Positions 3,891 through 24,675 of a stretch of DNA of 64,000 nucleotides are shown piece by piece. Both the position numbers and the translations under genes were made by a program. The notes under the pieces were generated by a model. The model worked only from the letters and a program-made list of their open reading frames with translations. It made no database searches and was not told the origin of the DNA. This DNA is from a bacterium (GTDB lineage Bacteria > UBP7 > UBA6624 > JBBIMK01), in assembly GCA_037444445.1 (NCBI GenBank), contig JBBIMK010000001.1, positions 5,012-69,011 on the forward strand, written 5' to 3'. The first letter of the stretch is position 1. Each line of letters begins with the position of its first letter.

Positions 3891-5633
3891 GTGGAAGAAA
3901 AAATCTGGTTTAAGTATTATGACAATTATGTGAAAAAGCATCTGGAATATCCAGATATTTCCCTTCATGAGTTGGTCTCATCAAGAGCCAGGGAGCACTG
4001 GAATAAAACTGCTCTGGTGTTTATGCAATATCGGATGAGTTATAAGCAACTGGAAGAAGAAAGCAACTGTTTTGCGCATTTTTTGTTGAAGAAGGGGATT
4101 GGGAAGGGGAAGCAGGTGGTGCTGGTGCTGGCGAACACGCCGCACTTTCCAGTGGCGTATTATGGGGTATTAAAGGCGGGGGCAACGGCGGTGCCGGTGA
4201 ACCCATTATATACTGCCCGGGAACTGGTATATTTTTTGAAAGATTCTGAAGCTTCTCTGGTGGTCGCGTTTGATATGTTTGCGCAGCGGGTGAGGAGTGC
4301 GTGCGAAGAGGCGGGGATTCGGGATGTGGTGGTGGGGAGTGCGGCGGATTATCTTCCACCCATTCAAGCGTTTCTGTATCGTTTCCTGAAAAAGGGAAGG
4401 GGAGAAGGAAAGCAGAGAAGCGAAGGAGGGATGAGGAGTTCAGGGGTTGAAAATCGGGGTGGGGAGTTCGGAGTTCGGAGTTCGGGGTTGAAGGGTTTCA
4501 GTGCTAAAGAATTGGTGGGAATAGGGTTTCGGCAGGCATTGAGAGAAGGCTCACCCTACCCTACCGGGGTTCAGGTGAAGGGAGATGACCTGGCGACATT
4601 GATTTATACGGGTGGAACGACTGGAGTTTCTAAGGGGGCTATGCTATTACATCGGAATTTAGTGGCAAATACTTTACAGTGTTCTGCGTGGTTTCCCGAG
4701 ATCAGCCAGGGGCGAGCCACTTTCGTGGCGGTGATGCCATTTTTTCATTCCTTTGGCCTCACAGTGGCATTGAATTTTGGGCTGTATATGGGGGCGGAGA
4801 TTGTGTTAATTCCCCGGTTTCATGCCAGAACCCTGCTTGAAACATTACAGATACTTCGTCCACCGGTTGTTCTTCCCGCAATTCCTTCTATCTTTTCAGC
4901 GATTAACCACTTTCCGAGGATTGAGCAGTATAATCTTTCATCGCTCTGGGTTTCTATCAGCGGTGGTGCGCCATTGCCGGTAGAGGTGCAGAAGAAGTTT
5001 GAAGCATTAACTCATTCTATACTGGTGGAAGGGTTTGGGCTGACGGAAACTTCACCGGTGACCCATGTGAACCCACTCCTCGGGAAGCGGAAGGAGGGGA
5101 GTATTGGATTACCTTTGCCGGATACGGATGTGAAGATAGTGGATGTGGAAAATGGTAAGAAGGAACTACCGGCAGGAGAAGAAGGAGAAGTTATTATCAA
5201 AGGTCCTCAAGTTATGGCTGGCTACTGGAAGAATGCGGAGGAAACGGCGAAAGTTCTTATGGATGGGTGGCTTTACACGGGCGACATCGGAAGGATGGAT
5301 GAAGACGGGTTCTTTTATATCGTGGACCGGAAGAAGGATATGGTTATCACGGAGGGGTTTAATGTATTTCCGAGGGAGATTGAGGAGGTTTTATATACTC
5401 ATCCGAAGGTGAAAGATGCGGCGGCGGTGGGCGTAAAAGACCGCTTAAAAGGAGAAGTGGTGAAGGCGTTCGTAGTTCCTAAGGAGGGCGAAATCCTGAC
5501 AAAAGAAGAAATCCTGAACTACTGTCAGGAGCATCTTGCCTGGTATAAAGTTCCGAAGTCTGTGGAATTTTTGCAGGAGTTGCCCAGAAGCGCCATCGGG
5601 AAAGTGTTGAGAAGGGAATTGAAAAAGCAATGA
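3891..5633 (+). CDS. fadD: Long-chain fatty-acid--CoA ligase (AMP-binding superfamily)
   Basis: YTGGTTGVSKGAMLLHRNL (A3 motif), GYWKNAEETAK, GDIGRMDEDGFFYIVDRKKD. GTG start preceded by aagggggaagg. Contains a G/R/S-rich low-complexity segment. Confidence 0.85.
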   Translation: MEEKIWFKYYDNYVKKHLEYPDISLHELVSSRAREHWNKTALVFMQYRMSYKQLEEESNCFAHFLLKKGIGKGKQVVLVLANTPHFPVAYYGVLKAGATAVPVNPLYTARELVYFLKDSEASLVVAFDMFAQRVRSACEEAGIRDVVVGSAADYLPPIQAFLYRFLKKGRGEGKQRSEGGMRSSGVENRGGEFGVRSSGLKGFSAKELVGIGFRQALREGSPYPTGVQVKGDDLATLIYTGGTTGVSKGAMLLHRNLVANTLQCSAWFPEISQGRATFVAVMPFFHSFGLTVALNFGLYMGAEIVLIPRFHARTLLETLQILRPPVVLPAIPSIFSAINHFPRIEQYNLSSLWVSISGGAPLPVEVQKKFEALTHSILVEGFGLTETSPVTHVNPLLGKRKEGSIGLPLPDTDVKIVDVENGKKELPAGEEGEVIIKGPQVMAGYWKNAEETAKVLMDGWLYTGDIGRMDEDGFFYIVDRKKDMVITEGFNVFPREIEEVLYTHPKVKDAAAVGVKDRLKGEVVKAFVVPKEGEILTKEEILNYCQEHLAWYKVPKSVEFLQELPRSAIGKVLRRELKKQ

Positions 5634-14897: not shown

Positions 14898-15488
14898 TCA
14901 CAACCAGCCATAGAGAACAAGGGAAGAAAAAACGCGCCACGCAAAGATGCCAGTGAGTATGAGCAAGGAGATAGTCAGATAAAGAGGCCAGGGCGAATGG
15001 ACTTGAAGCCCCAGAATGACTTCTGTGAGCACGAGGAACAAGCAGATGGCTGAAATTTTTTTTCGGTTCTTCCTCAGTGCGCCGAGTTGCACCGCTAATT
15101 CCTCCGGCACAGGCTTATCCGGAGAGAGTTTCTCCAGGAAGCCTTCTATCTGGGGTTCAATTCGGAAAACAACCACATACAGGAGAGTGAGAATCACCAG
15201 AAAAACGCCCAGTTTTACATCCAGAACCCAATTGGAGAAAAATCCTGAAACACCTATTTCATCTACCCAAACCACGAGGAGCCCGGTGAGAAGAATAGTG
15301 AGAAGCCACCAAATACATCGTCGTGGAGCCTTAAAGATGATATTCTCCATATATCGGTCTACCGGATAGATGATTTTAGAACCCATCCGTGCACGCTCAT
15401 TTACAGCCATTAGCAGCCAAAAGGGACCTGCCATTAATACCGCAGAAAGCACATGAAATAGCAGAAGAACATTTCTTGCCTCTTGCAT
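14898..15488 (-). CDS. Hypothetical polytopic membrane protein
   Basis: 196 aa with multiple hydrophobic helices; no recognised motif. Confidence 0.4.
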   Translation of the reverse strand: MQEARNVLLLFHVLSAVLMAGPFWLLMAVNERARMGSKIIYPVDRYMENIIFKAPRRCIWWLLTILLTGLLVVWVDEIGVSGFFSNWVLDVKLGVFLVILTLLYVVVFRIEPQIEGFLEKLSPDKPVPEELAVQLGALRKNRKKISAICLFLVLTEVILGLQVHSPWPLYLTISLLILTGIFAWRVFSSLVLYGWL

Positions 15489-16568: not shown

Positions 16569-18176
16569 TTATGTTTTCTGCGATTGAAGTAGAATCTGTG
16601 CCTGGTGAACCAAACGAGAAAGAACTCGGTCGCGGGGCAAATGAGGAGCCAAACTCAAGATTTCCGCATACTTCTTCAACTTTAACCACTTATGAATTCC
16701 CCATCGGAGAGAGAGGATGTCGGGATTTCTCGTTCCTTTTCCGACCCGCTGAACCTTACTCGCGAAAATACGAAAACGATTGAATTTTTTGCTGTTTGTA
16801 GCATTCTGGATTTTTTTCATCAGAGCGGGATAGTTCGGCAGAGGAGAATATAAACGATGGTCTGTAAGACACCAGACATTTTTATCAATTTTGACAAATT
16901 CAGAGGAATTAGTGAGAACAAAGAGAAGGGCTTTAGGAGTGATTTTTGGTCGTTGTTGCTGGAGGATACTCAATAACTCTTGAAAGTTCATAGGGGTGCG
17001 TGCTTTCTGAAGCACCTGTAATACATGTAAGCGAAGAGTAACACCCGGTTTTAGCCCCCATTCTTTAAGTCCATAATATCCAGGAACCCCTGTCCAAACA
17101 AAAGTGTCTTTTACACGAGTCAGAGTATTTAAAATCCAAAAGCGAGAAGGCTTACGAAGTTTCATCCTTTTATGCACCAACCCCAACAGTTCAGAATAAT
17201 GGCAGGGTCTCCCAATCTTGCGGAAAGCATTCACCAGAATAGCCACGGATTTCTCAAGGGGTTGGCGGAGACGAACAGCCCTGGGGATATTCCATTCTAC
17301 TAACCCATATACACCCGGGCGTCCAGTCCAAACGAATCGCTCCCGATGATTGGACAAACAGCGATGAATCGTAAGAGGATTCAATTTTCGCGCATATTGC
17401 AACCGATTCACTTCCTCATGGATCGTTAGATAATGAGACGGTTTGCCTATTCTTTTCAATGCCAGTGCCGCTATGGCGACGGTTCTACCTACGGCTTTCC
17501 GGAGGAAAATCACCCCTCTTTTACCTTTCAGAAGAACCCGCTGTCGTAGGGCTTCATGCAAAAGGTGTTTTAGAAAATATGCGGAAAGAGGAATGGAAGA
17601 AGATTGCTGAATTTTTTTGATCAGAACCTGGCGAGGAAGATAAACTTCGTTCTGGAGGATTTGTTGCATAATTTTTAACGCCACCCTCACTTTTTCGGCA
17701 GTTTTTTTATCGTTATTTAAAGTGTAGAAACCTTCATTTTCCTCGTTGAGGAAGTAGTGAATTCCTCCCTGGGCCTTAAACATTCTGCAGACTATTTGGA
17801 AGGCGCCGAGAGCAAAGTGAGGATTGGGGTGGAGAGTTTTAAGAGCTTCCTCAAAAGAAGTTCGGGATAGAACTCTGTGATGCGTTTGAAAAATGTAGGA
17901 AAGGGTTTCTTCCACAGCGGGAAGGAACGATTTTCTCTTGACATAAGAAAGGGAAAGAGCAGAGACTTCCAATTGCTGAGCTCTTTGACGGGAAACTCCA
18001 CCGAGAAACCGGGCTCCCGTTTCCTGGAAGGTGTGAAAACGGCCATCCGTCAGGCCAAAACGATACCTTAGAACTTTCTGCTTTCTGGGCTCCAGCGAAT
18101 GATACAAGGATTCAAAAAGAGGAAGGAAGTTCGGAGTCATTTTAGGATGTTTCCTGAAAGTTCTCAAGGTTCTCAC
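16569..18176 (-). CDS. Multi-HTH protein: N-terminal sigma-70 region-4-like HTH followed by three or four HARE-HTH winged-helix repeats
   Basis: RKQKVLRYRFGLTDGRFHTFQETGARFLGGVSRQRAQQLEVSAL (sigma-70 region 4-like). Repeated modules ...RFVWTGRPGVYGLVEW / ...TFVWTGVPGYYGLKEW / ...FVKIDKNVWCL match the HARE-HTH signature (fvrvgrGlygL.eW). Confidence 0.45.
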   Translation of the reverse strand: MRTLRTFRKHPKMTPNFLPLFESLYHSLEPRKQKVLRYRFGLTDGRFHTFQETGARFLGGVSRQRAQQLEVSALSLSYVKRKSFLPAVEETLSYIFQTHHRVLSRTSFEEALKTLHPNPHFALGAFQIVCRMFKAQGGIHYFLNEENEGFYTLNNDKKTAEKVRVALKIMQQILQNEVYLPRQVLIKKIQQSSSIPLSAYFLKHLLHEALRQRVLLKGKRGVIFLRKAVGRTVAIAALALKRIGKPSHYLTIHEEVNRLQYARKLNPLTIHRCLSNHRERFVWTGRPGVYGLVEWNIPRAVRLRQPLEKSVAILVNAFRKIGRPCHYSELLGLVHKRMKLRKPSRFWILNTLTRVKDTFVWTGVPGYYGLKEWGLKPGVTLRLHVLQVLQKARTPMNFQELLSILQQQRPKITPKALLFVLTNSSEFVKIDKNVWCLTDHRLYSPLPNYPALMKKIQNATNSKKFNRFRIFASKVQRVGKGTRNPDILSLRWGIHKWLKLKKYAEILSLAPHLPRDRVLSRLVHQAQILLQSQKT

Positions 18177-18191
18177 CTCAATAGCCGTAAA

Positions 18192-19034
18192 TTACGGCGG
18201 ATAAAAAGACTCAAAAACAAACTGTCCATGGGACTCGTGTAAAAAACCAGCCCGAGGAGTTTCATCATGCTCAAAAACCAGAAGCCATTTTTCTTCCACA
18301 ATCCTGCGATAAATTTCTTTCCGAACCTGGAGAGTTTGTAAGGGGAACAGGTCATAAGCCATGATATACGGAATAGGGATGTGACGAGTCGTAGGAATCA
18401 GGTCGCCCATAAAAGCCACAATACCTTTAGTGGTATGAAACAGAACGATCTGGTGACCGCGAGTATGTCCAGGGGTTTTTAAGCAGCGAATTTGAGGGGT
18501 GATGAGCACATCATCTCCTGTAACCCACCGGAGCACTTTCAGTTCCTGTAAAGGCAGGAAGAGTTCGGGGATATAGCTGGCTTTAGAGCGTTCATTGGGG
18601 TTCAGGGCATCCTCCCACTCCTCTTTCTGGACGAAATAGGTGGCCCGGGGGAAGGCGGGTAGCCGACGCCCTCTGGGGTCTAACACCGTAGACCCGCCAC
18701 AATGGTCAAAATGTAGATGAGTGAGGAGCACCAGCGTAACATCGTGAACAGAGAATGAAAGGGAAGATAAAGGAGAATTCCAGTGAATATCATAGATAGC
18801 AAGCATCTTTGGATTGAGGTGAGAACCCACACCATTATCCACCAGGGCAAGAAACCTTTCTCCCTGAACAAACAGAACATTCATACCCAGCAGGATACGG
18901 TTCTTTTCGTCGGCAGGGTAGGTCCGTTCCCATAGAACTTTGGGAACGACTCCGAACATCGCTCCCCCGTCTAAACGGAAGGTGCCGAATTGAACATGGT
19001 AAAAATCCAGGTCTCCGTATTGAAAATGTCTCAA
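18192..19034 (-). CDS. MBL-fold metallo-hydrolase
   Basis: HLHFDHCGG metal-binding motif. Confidence 0.75.
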   Translation of the reverse strand: MRHFQYGDLDFYHVQFGTFRLDGGAMFGVVPKVLWERTYPADEKNRILLGMNVLFVQGERFLALVDNGVGSHLNPKMLAIYDIHWNSPLSSLSFSVHDVTLVLLTHLHFDHCGGSTVLDPRGRRLPAFPRATYFVQKEEWEDALNPNERSKASYIPELFLPLQELKVLRWVTGDDVLITPQIRCLKTPGHTRGHQIVLFHTTKGIVAFMGDLIPTTRHIPIPYIMAYDLFPLQTLQVRKEIYRRIVEEKWLLVFEHDETPRAGFLHESHGQFVFESFYPP

Positions 19035-19039
19035 TCTAT

Positions 19040-19978
19040 TTATCCTCCAAATAAGGTATCCACTTGTTTCATCAGGTCACGAACATGCTGAGCAGAAGTG
19101 GACAAGGCGGTCAATTCATCTGGAGACAGGGGGAGTTCCAGGATTTTTTCTACACCCTCTTTTCCCAGTATAATGGGCACGCCGACAAAAACATCTTTGA
19201 TTCCGTATTGCCCGTTAAGAAAAGTGCAAGCAGAGAGGAGTCGTTTTTCATCCCAGAGAATGGATTCCACCATTTCTGTGATAGCTACGCCAGGGGCATA
19301 GTAGGCACTACCCGTTTTTAGCAGAGCGACGATTTCTCCTCCGCCCTGACGGGTTCGGTTAATAATGGCATCCAGCCTGTCTCTGGGAATCAATTCCGTG
19401 GCGGGAATACCACTGACGGCCGCATATCGGACCACAGGAACCATCAAATCTCCATGACTTCCCAGAACAATGGCTTGAACGCAATCAAAGGAAACGCCCA
19501 GTTCCATAGCAATGAAGGCACGGAAGCGAGCCGTGTCCAGAGCACCGGCCATGCCCACGACCCGTGCTGGAGGAAACCCTGTAACCCGATAAGCGGTATA
19601 TACCATAGCGTCCAGAGGATTAGTGACCACGATGACAATAGACTGGGGAGCGAATTCACGGATTTTTTCCGAAACGCCTTTGACGATATTAAAATTGGTA
19701 ATCAAGAGGTCCTCACGGCTCATACCGGGTTTTCGAGCTAACCCGGCAGTCAATACCACCACGTCTGCCCCCTCTATGGCCTGATAATTATTGGAGCCCG
19801 TCACACGAGATGAAATGCCATAGATAGGGCTGGCTTGCGTCATATCCAGGGCTTTTCCCTGAGGCAATCCCTCAATGATGTCCACCAGAACCACATCCGC
19901 AATCTGTCGGGTTTGAATTTCACTGGCGGCTTCGGCACCCACATTTCCAGCGCCGATGATTCCCACTTTAAACCTCAC
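19040..19978 (-). CDS. mdh: Malate/L-lactate dehydrogenase (LDH-like MDH)
   Basis: KVGIIGAGNVG Rossmann motif; catalytic region IVLGSHGD. Confidence 0.85.
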   Translation of the reverse strand: MRFKVGIIGAGNVGAEAASEIQTRQIADVVLVDIIEGLPQGKALDMTQASPIYGISSRVTGSNNYQAIEGADVVVLTAGLARKPGMSREDLLITNFNIVKGVSEKIREFAPQSIVIVVTNPLDAMVYTAYRVTGFPPARVVGMAGALDTARFRAFIAMELGVSFDCVQAIVLGSHGDLMVPVVRYAAVSGIPATELIPRDRLDAIINRTRQGGGEIVALLKTGSAYYAPGVAITEMVESILWDEKRLLSACTFLNGQYGIKDVFVGVPIILGKEGVEKILELPLSPDELTALSTSAQHVRDLMKQVDTLFGG

Positions 19979-23217: not shown

Positions 23218-24675
23218 CTATGGATAAATTTTTGAGGAATTCATCATAATAGAAGCAGAGTAACGGCACAAAGACACATTCGTCACGGTGATAGCACCTT
23301 CCTGATGGCCTTTACCTCCGAACAAACGGGAAGGTTGAATCAAGAAGCCTGAGAAGATTACAGGAGGTTGAAGCAGAAGTCTTTTACCATTTTCATCCAC
23401 AGGATAGATAGGCGCTACAATATCTTTTTCCCCCTCCCAGGTTATCCTGCCGAGGACCTGTTGAAAAAGTTTACCTTTCGCATCCGTTAGTTCCACACCC
23501 ATAAGTAAGCCATCTTGATGTGCGGAAACCCTTGCCTGTAAGCAATTGAAATCTATGCCAGGAACAAGATTCTGGATGCTTACTCCCACCGGGAAATGTA
23601 AACCCGTTTCAAAATCTGGAAAATCCTCTGACCGATATGGAATGACCCAGGCTCCGGCAGAGGAGGCAAGAGTGAAGACGGTTCGGAGCGATTCGGTGAT
23701 ACGAACAGTCTCTTTCCGGCGTAAGGATTGTGCCATTTCCTGAAAAGCAAAAAATGCGAGTTTAGGCTGATAACTCCACTGGATGAGCCCAAAATGAGAT
23801 TCCAGAGAAGCAGGGTCTTCCCCATCATCCCGGAAATCATACCAGAAAATTTTTGAAATACGGTTGTACAGTAAGCGGGCAATTGACTGTTGCAAGAAAT
23901 TTGCCTGGTCGTCTTCAGAAACACCATCCGCCTGAGGGGCTGTGCTCCAGCCAATTTCTGTGACCCAGAGTTCCTTGTTTGTGGCCTCCGTTTGTATGTC
24001 AGTGAGATTCTCTTCTTCTACGCCATAAAAGGGGAGAGGGAAAGTATACGGGTGAACGGCAACGATGTCCACCGCTTCTAAACCGCCTGCCCGGGCGAAT
24101 GCGCGAAAATAAAGGGCATCAGAAGTCGCCAGGCCTGCCATGACTACCCGGGCATCGGGCATTTTATCCTTCACAGACGGATAGAGCGTTCTCAAAAGTG
24201 AAGCATACGAAAAGGGGTCAGGAGCACGCCCCCAAAAACGGGCGGTATTCACTTCATTGAGAATTTGAAAATAATGCGTATAAGGATAAAATTCCCTCAT
24301 CGCACGAAGAAGGAACTCACTCTCCAGGCCTTTAGATTCTTGAAGCCACTCCGGGACATCGGTAAACACGATGAGAGGGTAGAGCCCATTTTTACGGAGA
24401 AACTTGAAAGCAAAAATGTACCGGTCAGTACTCCACTCAGAGGGCCGGGGTGCTATATCTCGCAGGCTTACTTCTTCCCTGACCCAGCGAACTTTTAGTT
24501 CCTTAACGCGCTTGAGTGCGTCGGGATATTCAGAAGGAGAATACCGCCTCGTCAGAAAAAGATTCACACCCAGTTTCTCGCCTTCTATCCGAATACAGAA
24601 GGTTGAACTAAAACAAAATATGGAAAGAACGATAATCATAGACTTCTGCCTGATTTTTTTCAACGCCTTCACCAT
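23218..24675 (-). CDS. Secreted glycoside hydrolase (GH5/GH-A clan-like)
   Basis: N-terminal signal-like hydrophobic segment; NEVN (acid/base) and TEIGW (nucleophile) motifs typical of clan GH-A. Confidence 0.55.
   Translation of the reverse strand: MVKALKKIRQKSMIIVLSIFCFSSTFCIRIEGEKLGVNLFLTRRYSPSEYPDALKRVKELKVRWVREEVSLRDIAPRPSEWSTDRYIFAFKFLRKNGLYPLIVFTDVPEWLQESKGLESEFLLRAMREFYPYTHYFQILNEVNTARFWGRAPDPFSYASLLRTLYPSVKDKMPDARVVMAGLATSDALYFRAFARAGGLEAVDIVAVHPYTFPLPFYGVEEENLTDIQTEATNKELWVTEIGWSTAPQADGVSEDDQANFLQQSIARLLYNRISKIFWYDFRDDGEDPASLESHFGLIQWSYQPKLAFFAFQEMAQSLRRKETVRITESLRTVFTLASSAGAWVIPYRSEDFPDFETGLHFPVGVSIQNLVPGIDFNCLQARVSAHQDGLLMGVELTDAKGKLFQQVLGRITWEGEKDIVAPIYPVDENGKRLLLQPPVIFSGFLIQPSRLFGGKGHQEGAITVTNVSLCRYSASIMMNSSKIYP

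Follow-up and report, generated by a model that had tools for sequence, protein, structure and literature searches.

The question raised by the locus described here is what role a bacterial protein can have that begins with the region 4 helix-turn-helix (HTH) of sigma-70 factors and continues as a string of winged helices. The protein (hereafter the target) is encoded at positions 16569-18176 of a 64,000-nucleotide (nt) stretch of a bacterial genome of the GTDB lineage UBP7; UBA6624; JBBIMK01 (assembly GCA_037444445.1, contig JBBIMK010000001.1, forward-strand positions 5,012 to 69,011), the whole of which is called the window below. Its domain homologies point, tentatively and with real reserve, to a multivalent DNA-binding global transcription or nucleoid-associated factor that is not a sigma factor. 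The same homologies place it, as a highly divergent member, in a large existing family that combines sigma-70 region 4 with HARE-HTH domains. Novelty does not lie in the domain combination, and the interest of the locus lies in a family for which no experimental characterisation is known.

The 535-amino-acid (aa) open reading frame (ORF) of the preliminary description, opening at a GTG codon, was present on the minus strand, and the plus strand across 16569-18176 is stop-rich with no such ORF. The GTG of this maximal form falls within the GAGGTGA motif that serves a TTG at 18167; three candidate starts lie within 18140-18176, and two public gene calls differ (ATG 18140 vs TTG 18167). Residues are numbered here on the 523-aa form (ATG 18140) unless the 535-aa form is named. 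The ORF is uninterrupted also in L002, a 27-kb contig from another sample, at 96.9% nt identity, and the gene order there is the same as in the window from the ABC transporter genes through mqnA and further; the two copies differ by 26 synonymous and 20 non-synonymous codon changes (ratio of non-synonymous to synonymous rates, dN/dS, ~0.22) and by no insertions or deletions. A full-length orthologue, P0154 (508 aa, named 'hypothetical protein', from the unclassified bacterium JZ-2024 1), shares 25% identity with the target (E 2e-48), is collinear with it from region 4 through the final helix and has the same layout of five modules and a tail, and the alignment of a partial copy, P0006, is likewise collinear. 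The intact L002 copy with its low dN/dS, the collinear orthologue and the partial copy together show that the ORF is a real gene under purifying selection.

The N-terminal head was recognised as sigma-70 region 4 by comparisons of sequence and structure. The Pfam model Sigma70_r4 (PF04545) matched aa 15-62 at 25.3 bits (gathering score 24.1), phmmer against PDB sequences retrieved region 4 of RpoD/SigA (E 4.5e-7), and Foldseek against the PDB superposed the N-terminus of the model on SigA region 4 with a root-mean-square deviation (rmsd) of 1.3-1.9 Å at 37-44% identity. The closest sequences are region 4 of group-1 sigma factors (37-54% identity). The N-terminal peptide quoted in the preliminary description is present, and its reading as region 4 without regions 2 and 3 holds: no regions 1-3 accompany the head, which begins about 15 residues from the N-terminus, the Pfam scan gave no Sigma70_r2 or Sigma70_r3 match at E<=1, and the NCBIfam sigma models aligned only over their C-terminal ~50-70 positions, the best reaching 34.8 bits vs cutoffs of 252-800. 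Region 2 of sigma factors is required for core binding, -10 recognition and promoter melting. Since the target lacks it, the protein is not regarded as a sigma factor, and it would be expected neither to recruit core RNA polymerase (RNAP) in the manner of a sigma factor nor to melt promoters.

The recognition helix of the head departs from that of its relatives in a consistent manner. The pattern R-E-R-x-R-Q is found in at least 90% of aligned family members, as in primary sigma factors, and the usual family form is TRERVRQ, whereas the target carries SRQRAQQLE and P0154 carries SRQRAHQI. Relative to RpoD/SigA, the helix residues R47, R49 and Q52 (alignment numbering) are retained, two of the five near-invariant residues are altered (E to Q and R to Q), and the turn of the HTH has an insertion of 2 aa. 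The substitutions in the helix are common to both orthologues despite an overall identity of 25%, which argues for a conserved and specific read-out, and because SRQRAQQ and SRQRAHQ replace TRERVRQ, the DNA sequence read by the head probably differs from the canonical TTGACA -35 element.

The head is followed in the full-length AlphaFold2 (AF2) model, built on a 25-sequence alignment (mean predicted local distance difference test, pLDDT, 83), by five helix-helix-helix-strand-strand repeats (modules 1, 2, A, B and C, from the N-terminal side; in the model aa 66-141, 145-213, 219-280, 293-358 and 369-425) and four long C-terminal helices (aa 437-522). The preliminary description had counted three or four HARE-type repeats; the repeats were found, the number was not, since AF2 and profile comparison with hhalign gave five modules. 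Its repeated motif FVWTGxPGxYGLxEW was also found, in exact form in two modules only and not in three or four: RFVWTGRPGVYGLVEW in module A and TFVWTGVPGYYGLKEW in module B. The wing reads YGLVEW and YGLKEW in these two modules. Modules 1, 2 and C have degenerate versions of it (WCLTDH in module C), the one in module 2 corresponding to the wing motif GxxGLxxW of its homologues. Modules A and B share 39% identity (E 1e-16), and in the family alignment only the target and its strain variant P0003 have residues in the columns of module B, a module present also in P0006 and P0154. Their sequences mark modules A and B as a recent duplicate pair.

Assignment of the modules to the HARE-HTH family was carried by profiles and homologues more than by the target sequence itself. 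Of the two Pfam models named in the preliminary description, Sigma70_r4 passed on the target and HARE-HTH (PF05066) fell just short, matching only module C (aa 384-438, 535-aa numbering) at 23.3-23.9 bits vs a gathering score of 25.9; modules A and B scanned alone gave no Pfam HARE-HTH match. Modules A and B are, at the same time, 35-45% identical to the equivalent module of homologues, and that module is positive for Pfam HARE-HTH in P0005 (57 bits), P0029 (113 bits) and P0017 (47.5 bits; best stretch aa 228-287, whole-protein E 2.5e-12). The module of P0017 also passes the NCBIfam model of the RNAP delta subunit, TIGR04567 (46.2 bits vs a cutoff of 42), on which the target itself scores 11.8 bits. 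In hhalign the profile of type A/B matched that of type C at 98.9% probability (E 4e-17, 60 columns), the module 2 profile matched type C at 97.8% (E 8e-13) and type A/B at 95%, and the module 1 profile matched type C at 94.4% (E 9e-8), while the region 4 profile, as a negative control, gave 19% and 6% over ~15 columns against the same HARE profiles. On this comparison all five winged-helix modules are taken to be HARE-like.

The relation of the repeats to RNAP delta, which the preliminary description had proposed, was supported by the same route. The top PDB matches of the type-C profile are delta structures (2krc, 4nc7, 6zfb, 2m4k and 7f75; E 9e-5 to 4e-4). The type A/B profile did not reach the delta subunit among PDB sequences. 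Mediator Med21 and Fur headed its matches, with E>0.02 and probably by chance; because the A/B profile alone missed delta, the link from modules A and B to delta is drawn through the type-C profile and hhalign. Folded alone, module A gave a pLDDT of 96.9 and the same order of three helices and two strands. A Foldseek search with this model returned generic winged helices only, all at E>0.05, with delta at ranks 6, 10, 12 and 30 and with DNA binders among the neighbours (the histone H1 globular domain, the winged helix of KAT6A, Fur and Z-alpha). The predicted fold of module A is consistent with HARE and does not discriminate it from other winged helices.

The target is exceptionally basic. Its net charge is +58 and its isoelectric point (pI) 10.7, all segments are positive, and none of the other ORFs in the window, 46 in all, is as basic (second-highest charge +20, median pI 8.6). 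The four-helix tail had no relative in Pfam, the PDB, PHROGs or PADLOC; it is common to the orthologues P0006 and P0154, and its last ~35 residues occur also in P0063. The gene of the latter protein (589 aa) is flanked by one for a PglX methyltransferase (PADLOC 629 bits) and one for a BrxC/PglY ATPase, in a BREX-like locus (L003:457-8419).

The breadth of the family emerged from an exhaustive phmmer search over 1.84 billion cluster representatives, which gave 846 matches at E<=1e-3 and 80 at E<=1e-10, with the target alone left at E<=1e-30. Many of the 80 span aa 19-300 (535-aa numbering), from region 4 through the first HARE module. Some matches, few and low-ranking, are true sigma factors aligned through region 4 only, but proteins that share the architecture number in the hundreds. 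Scanning 76 of the best 100 hits together with the query gave Sigma70_r4 in 73 of the 77 sequences, HARE-HTH in 51 and RNA_pol_A_CTD, the C-terminal domain of the RNAP alpha subunit (alpha-CTD), in 33, against the earlier statement that the combination is not a described family. An exhaustive search was needed for this result, as word-indexed searches returned 2-6 matches and were swamped by true sigma factors through words in region 4; P0154 was recovered at full length only with a query from which region 4 had been removed. The family was reportedly noted in a computational study by Aravind and Iyer in 2012, which placed HARE-HTH in bacterial proteins with features of both the RNAP alpha subunit and sigma factors. 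NCBIfam has no model for the family, its members are named 'hypothetical protein' or 'RpoD' in source databases, and literature searches found no experimental paper on any of them.

The family consensus consists of optional alpha-CTD repeats, region 4 (TRERVRQIE), two divergent winged helices, two HARE modules and sometimes more HARE modules. The target keeps the order of region 4, two divergent winged helices and HARE, and differs from other members in several respects: the Pfam scan found no RNA_pol_A_CTD in it, it has one HARE copy (module B) more than the other aligned members, its recognition helix and HTH turn are altered as described above, its basic helical tail is otherwise confined to P0006, P0154 and, in part, P0063, and its pI exceeds the 5.8-10.2 of the other aligned members. 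The alpha-CTD, which lies N-terminal to region 4 and marks long forms only, is not family-defining, since it is present in only 33 of the 77. The subfamily of the target comprises, in a collection of ~15 billion proteins, only the target, P0003, P0006 and P0154, and identity outside its own species is at most 31%. The phyletic survey suggested in the preliminary description, carried out as a scan of species-representative genomes for one HARE motif, gave 30 loci, mostly in Patescibacteria (Falkow-, Pacei-, Moranii-, Ryan-, Gribaldo- and Saccharibacteria) and Dehalococcoidia.

Two further observations concern other members of the family. A 568-aa member on an Abditibacteriota plasmid (L034; AP024153.1 101159-102865) is annotated 'RNA polymerase sigma factor RpoD' and is followed by a gene for a 1119-aa hypothetical protein; the HARE modules of the target align to its C-terminal part at 29% identity. 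Its name looks like over-annotation from the region 4 match. Short forms of ~340-380 aa, mostly from Patescibacteria, have a same-strand membrane protein gene at +1 or +2 in 15 of 24 genome loci (L008, L010, L011, L015, L017-L020, L023-L026, L028, L030 and L032; for example L017:8393-9757). The membrane protein (~425-500 aa) has no Pfam match, is 27-30% identical across phyla and carries the motif ..EELATxxHFP.., and the two genes look like a conserved pair. Because no homologue of this partner is present in the window or in the P0154 locus (L035), the clue it offers is not transferable to the target.

In the reading given tentative preference, the region 4 HTH would serve as one sequence-reading head for a short motif other than the canonical -35 element, and the HARE array and the tail, both basic, would touch adjacent DNA with low specificity, conferring avidity and possibly bridging or coating. 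It is favoured by the fact that the modules of the family (region 4, HARE and alpha-CTD) touch promoter DNA or RNAP in their parent proteins. It also draws on the charge of the target, on the helix substitutions common to the target and P0154, on the DNA binders among the fold neighbours of module A and on the isolated HARE-HTH of ASXL1, which pulled down duplex DNA (PMC6591016). Several points weigh on the other side. The literature searches found no binding experiment for any family member. The beta flap is a further binding partner of sigma region 4, so that region 4 and the HARE modules could be protein-protein adaptors. So positive a charge would suit an RNA binder no less than a DNA binder, and the best whole-model fold matches are the tandem winged helices of SelB, which bind RNA. 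The gene, constrained over short distances as judged from the strain pair, evolves fast over long ones (25% identity to P0154, vs 70% and 57% for the neighbouring genes), a pace that is uncommon among core chromatin proteins.

The main rival, which is possible although rather unlikely, is an RNAP-bound accessory role, in which region 4 would sit on the tip of the beta flap, competing with or replacing region 4 of the housekeeping sigma factor, one or more HARE modules would sit on beta' as the N-terminal domain of delta does, and the protein would modulate initiation or recycling while its tail contacts nucleic acid. The delta matches of the type-C profile and of the P0017 module agree with such a role, as do the proximity of the target head to region 4 of group-1 sigma factors and the alpha-CTD copies in nearly half of the sampled family members. 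The comparison with delta itself (RpoE of Firmicutes) is less favourable. The N-terminal domain of delta is homologous to the HARE-type winged helix of the target, but delta consists of one HARE domain and a disordered polyanionic tail, whereas the target has five modules, a sigma region 4 and a polycationic tail. The C-terminal region of delta has a net charge of -47 (PMC7749165) and delta acts through this tail, so that the same displacement of nucleic acids would be impossible for a protein of +58. Five modules also exceed what docking would need, and no RNAP subunit gene was found near the target in the neighbourhood scanned.

It is improbable that the target reads modified DNA, or is a defence or epigenetic component, with HARE modules that discriminate methylated or otherwise modified DNA and direct a response to it. 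Such a function has been proposed for HARE-HTH domains fused to restriction endonucleases (PMC10853773; PMC3417536), and the isolated HARE-HTH of ASXL1, a eukaryotic chromatin protein whose domain belongs to the same Pfam family (PF05066) as the target modules, pulled down duplex DNA with selectivity for N6-methyladenine (6mA; PMC6591016). The position of the tail-sharing P0063 between PglX and BrxC/PglY also agrees with it. The 6mA preference of ASXL1 was, however, reported for a single HARE copy in a large eukaryotic scaffold, whereas the surroundings of the target contain no modification system: no methyltransferase, nuclease or defence gene is among the ten neighbours scanned, PADLOC gave no match for the target or for P0006, the housekeeping context is kept in a distant relative (L035), and the target has no enzymatic or effector domain.

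An RNA-binding protein that uses its tandem winged-helix array as SelB does on selenocysteine insertion sequence (SECIS) RNA is very improbable. The top whole-model Foldseek matches are indeed SelB WH1-4, the C-terminal winged helices of that protein, and UFL1, and the charge is very basic, but these are generic matches between tandem winged-helix strings (12-15% identity, rmsd >12 Å, template modelling score 0.13-0.26, no detectable sequence homology), and the sequence homology of the target is to sigma region 4 and HARE/delta, not to SelB. A genuine minimal alternative sigma factor is scarcely credible: region 4 above its Pfam threshold and the RpoD name of the plasmid member speak for it, against the absence of regions 2 and 3 at E<=1, a region 4 so near the N-terminus that no room is left for them, NCBIfam sigma scores far below their cutoffs and the requirement for region 2 in core binding and -10 melting. 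An artefact, whether a non-coding ORF or the frameshifted fusion of two genes considered in the preliminary description, had nothing in its favour and has negligible probability given the unbroken frame in the 96.9%-identical strain with its dN/dS, the recurrence of the domain order across the family and the mean pLDDT of the model, and a frameshift fusion in particular was excluded by the intact L002 copy and the collinearity of P0154 over its full length.

Table 1. Features of the target gene and of its two upstream neighbours, in the direction of transcription (window coordinates; residues in 523-aa numbering).
Feature	Position	Strand	Residues	Remarks
Malate/lactate dehydrogenase gene (mdh)	19040..19978	minus		First of conserved triad
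MBL-fold protein gene, upstream neighbour	18192..19034	minus		Distant YtnP-like lactonase, 190 bits vs cutoff 425
Whole ORF, maximal form	16569..18176	minus		535 codons from GTG 18176; stop codon 16569-16571
Alternative start TTG	18167	minus		532 aa; GAGGTGA + 5 nt upstream is the best Shine-Dalgarno; start called in Logan copy P0003
Alternative start ATG	18140	minus		523 aa; start called by NCBI (P0001)
Sigma-70 region 4 HTH	17955..18125	minus	6-62	Recognition helix SRQRAQQLE; 2-aa insertion in HTH turn
Winged-helix module 1, divergent HARE-like	17718..17945	minus	66-141	AF2 three helices and hairpin, pLDDT ~87-92
Winged-helix module 2, HARE-like	17502..17708	minus	145-213	AF2 model
HARE-HTH module A	17292..17486	minus	219-283	C-terminal end RFVWTGRPGVYGLVEW
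HARE-HTH module B	17058..17264	minus	293-361	C-terminal end TFVWTGVPGYYGLKEW; duplicate of module A
HARE-HTH module C	16860..17036	minus	369-427	Pfam PF05066, just under gathering score
Basic four-helix tail	16572..16832	minus	437-523	AF2 pLDDT 81-95; segment 431-523 net charge +16

The target closes a minus-strand run of genes separated by gaps of 0-90 nt: an ABC ATPase, an ABC-2 permease, xseA, xseB, mdh, a metallo-beta-lactamase (MBL)-fold gene and the target itself, with a convergent mqnA-like gene downstream (Table 1). This agrees with the earlier placement of the target at the end of a co-directional xseAB-mdh-MBL cluster. The triad of mdh, MBL-fold gene and target is kept at the P0154 locus (L035:4696-8047), where the identities to the window are 70% for Mdh, 57% for the MBL-fold protein and 25% for the target. 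The genes xseAB lie outside this conserved block, their place in L035 being taken by a divergent ligA. That the target follows mdh and the MBL-fold gene is read as a matter of inherited gene order and not as a clue to function. Scans for promoter and terminator consensus sequences around the target did no better than shuffled sequences, and its co-transcription with the upstream genes is inferred from spacing only.

Neither rRNA nor tRNA genes were found in the 64-kb window, and nothing in it reached the gathering score of an Rfam family. Two other ORFs of the region, both on the minus strand, lacked assignments. One of 196 aa (14898-15488), between the mobA-like and mqnA-like genes, had no Pfam or NCBIfam match and corresponds to a called gene in L002 (12678-13268). 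The other, of 485 aa (23218-24675), lies upstream of the ABC genes and had no NCBIfam match, while its L002 counterpart matched Glyco_hydro_cc weakly.

A bolder proposal, regarded as doubtful, extends to the whole family, which is near-universal in some Patescibacteria. Its members would be chromatin or transcription factors of a new class that act close to promoters. Built from sigma region 4, delta-like HARE modules and sometimes alpha-CTD, they would occupy -35-like elements or the beta flap in competition with sigma and thereby set global promoter accessibility. The lineage of the target would then have been re-tooled, by a new recognition helix, an extra HARE module and a polycationic tail, into a histone-like coater of DNA.

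For annotation, genes that combine sigma region 4 with HARE modules should not be called sigma factors. The target offers a clean test case for the family: it lacks the alpha-CTD, its charge is extreme, and its distinctive recognition helix is kept in an orthologue of 25% identity. The family is large and taxonomically wide, with members in many Patescibacteria, in Dehalococcoidia and in other groups, and characterising one of them would indicate whether the general transcription or nucleoid factors of bacteria include an additional layer that has been overlooked, a question that weighs most for reduced-genome lineages with few regulators.

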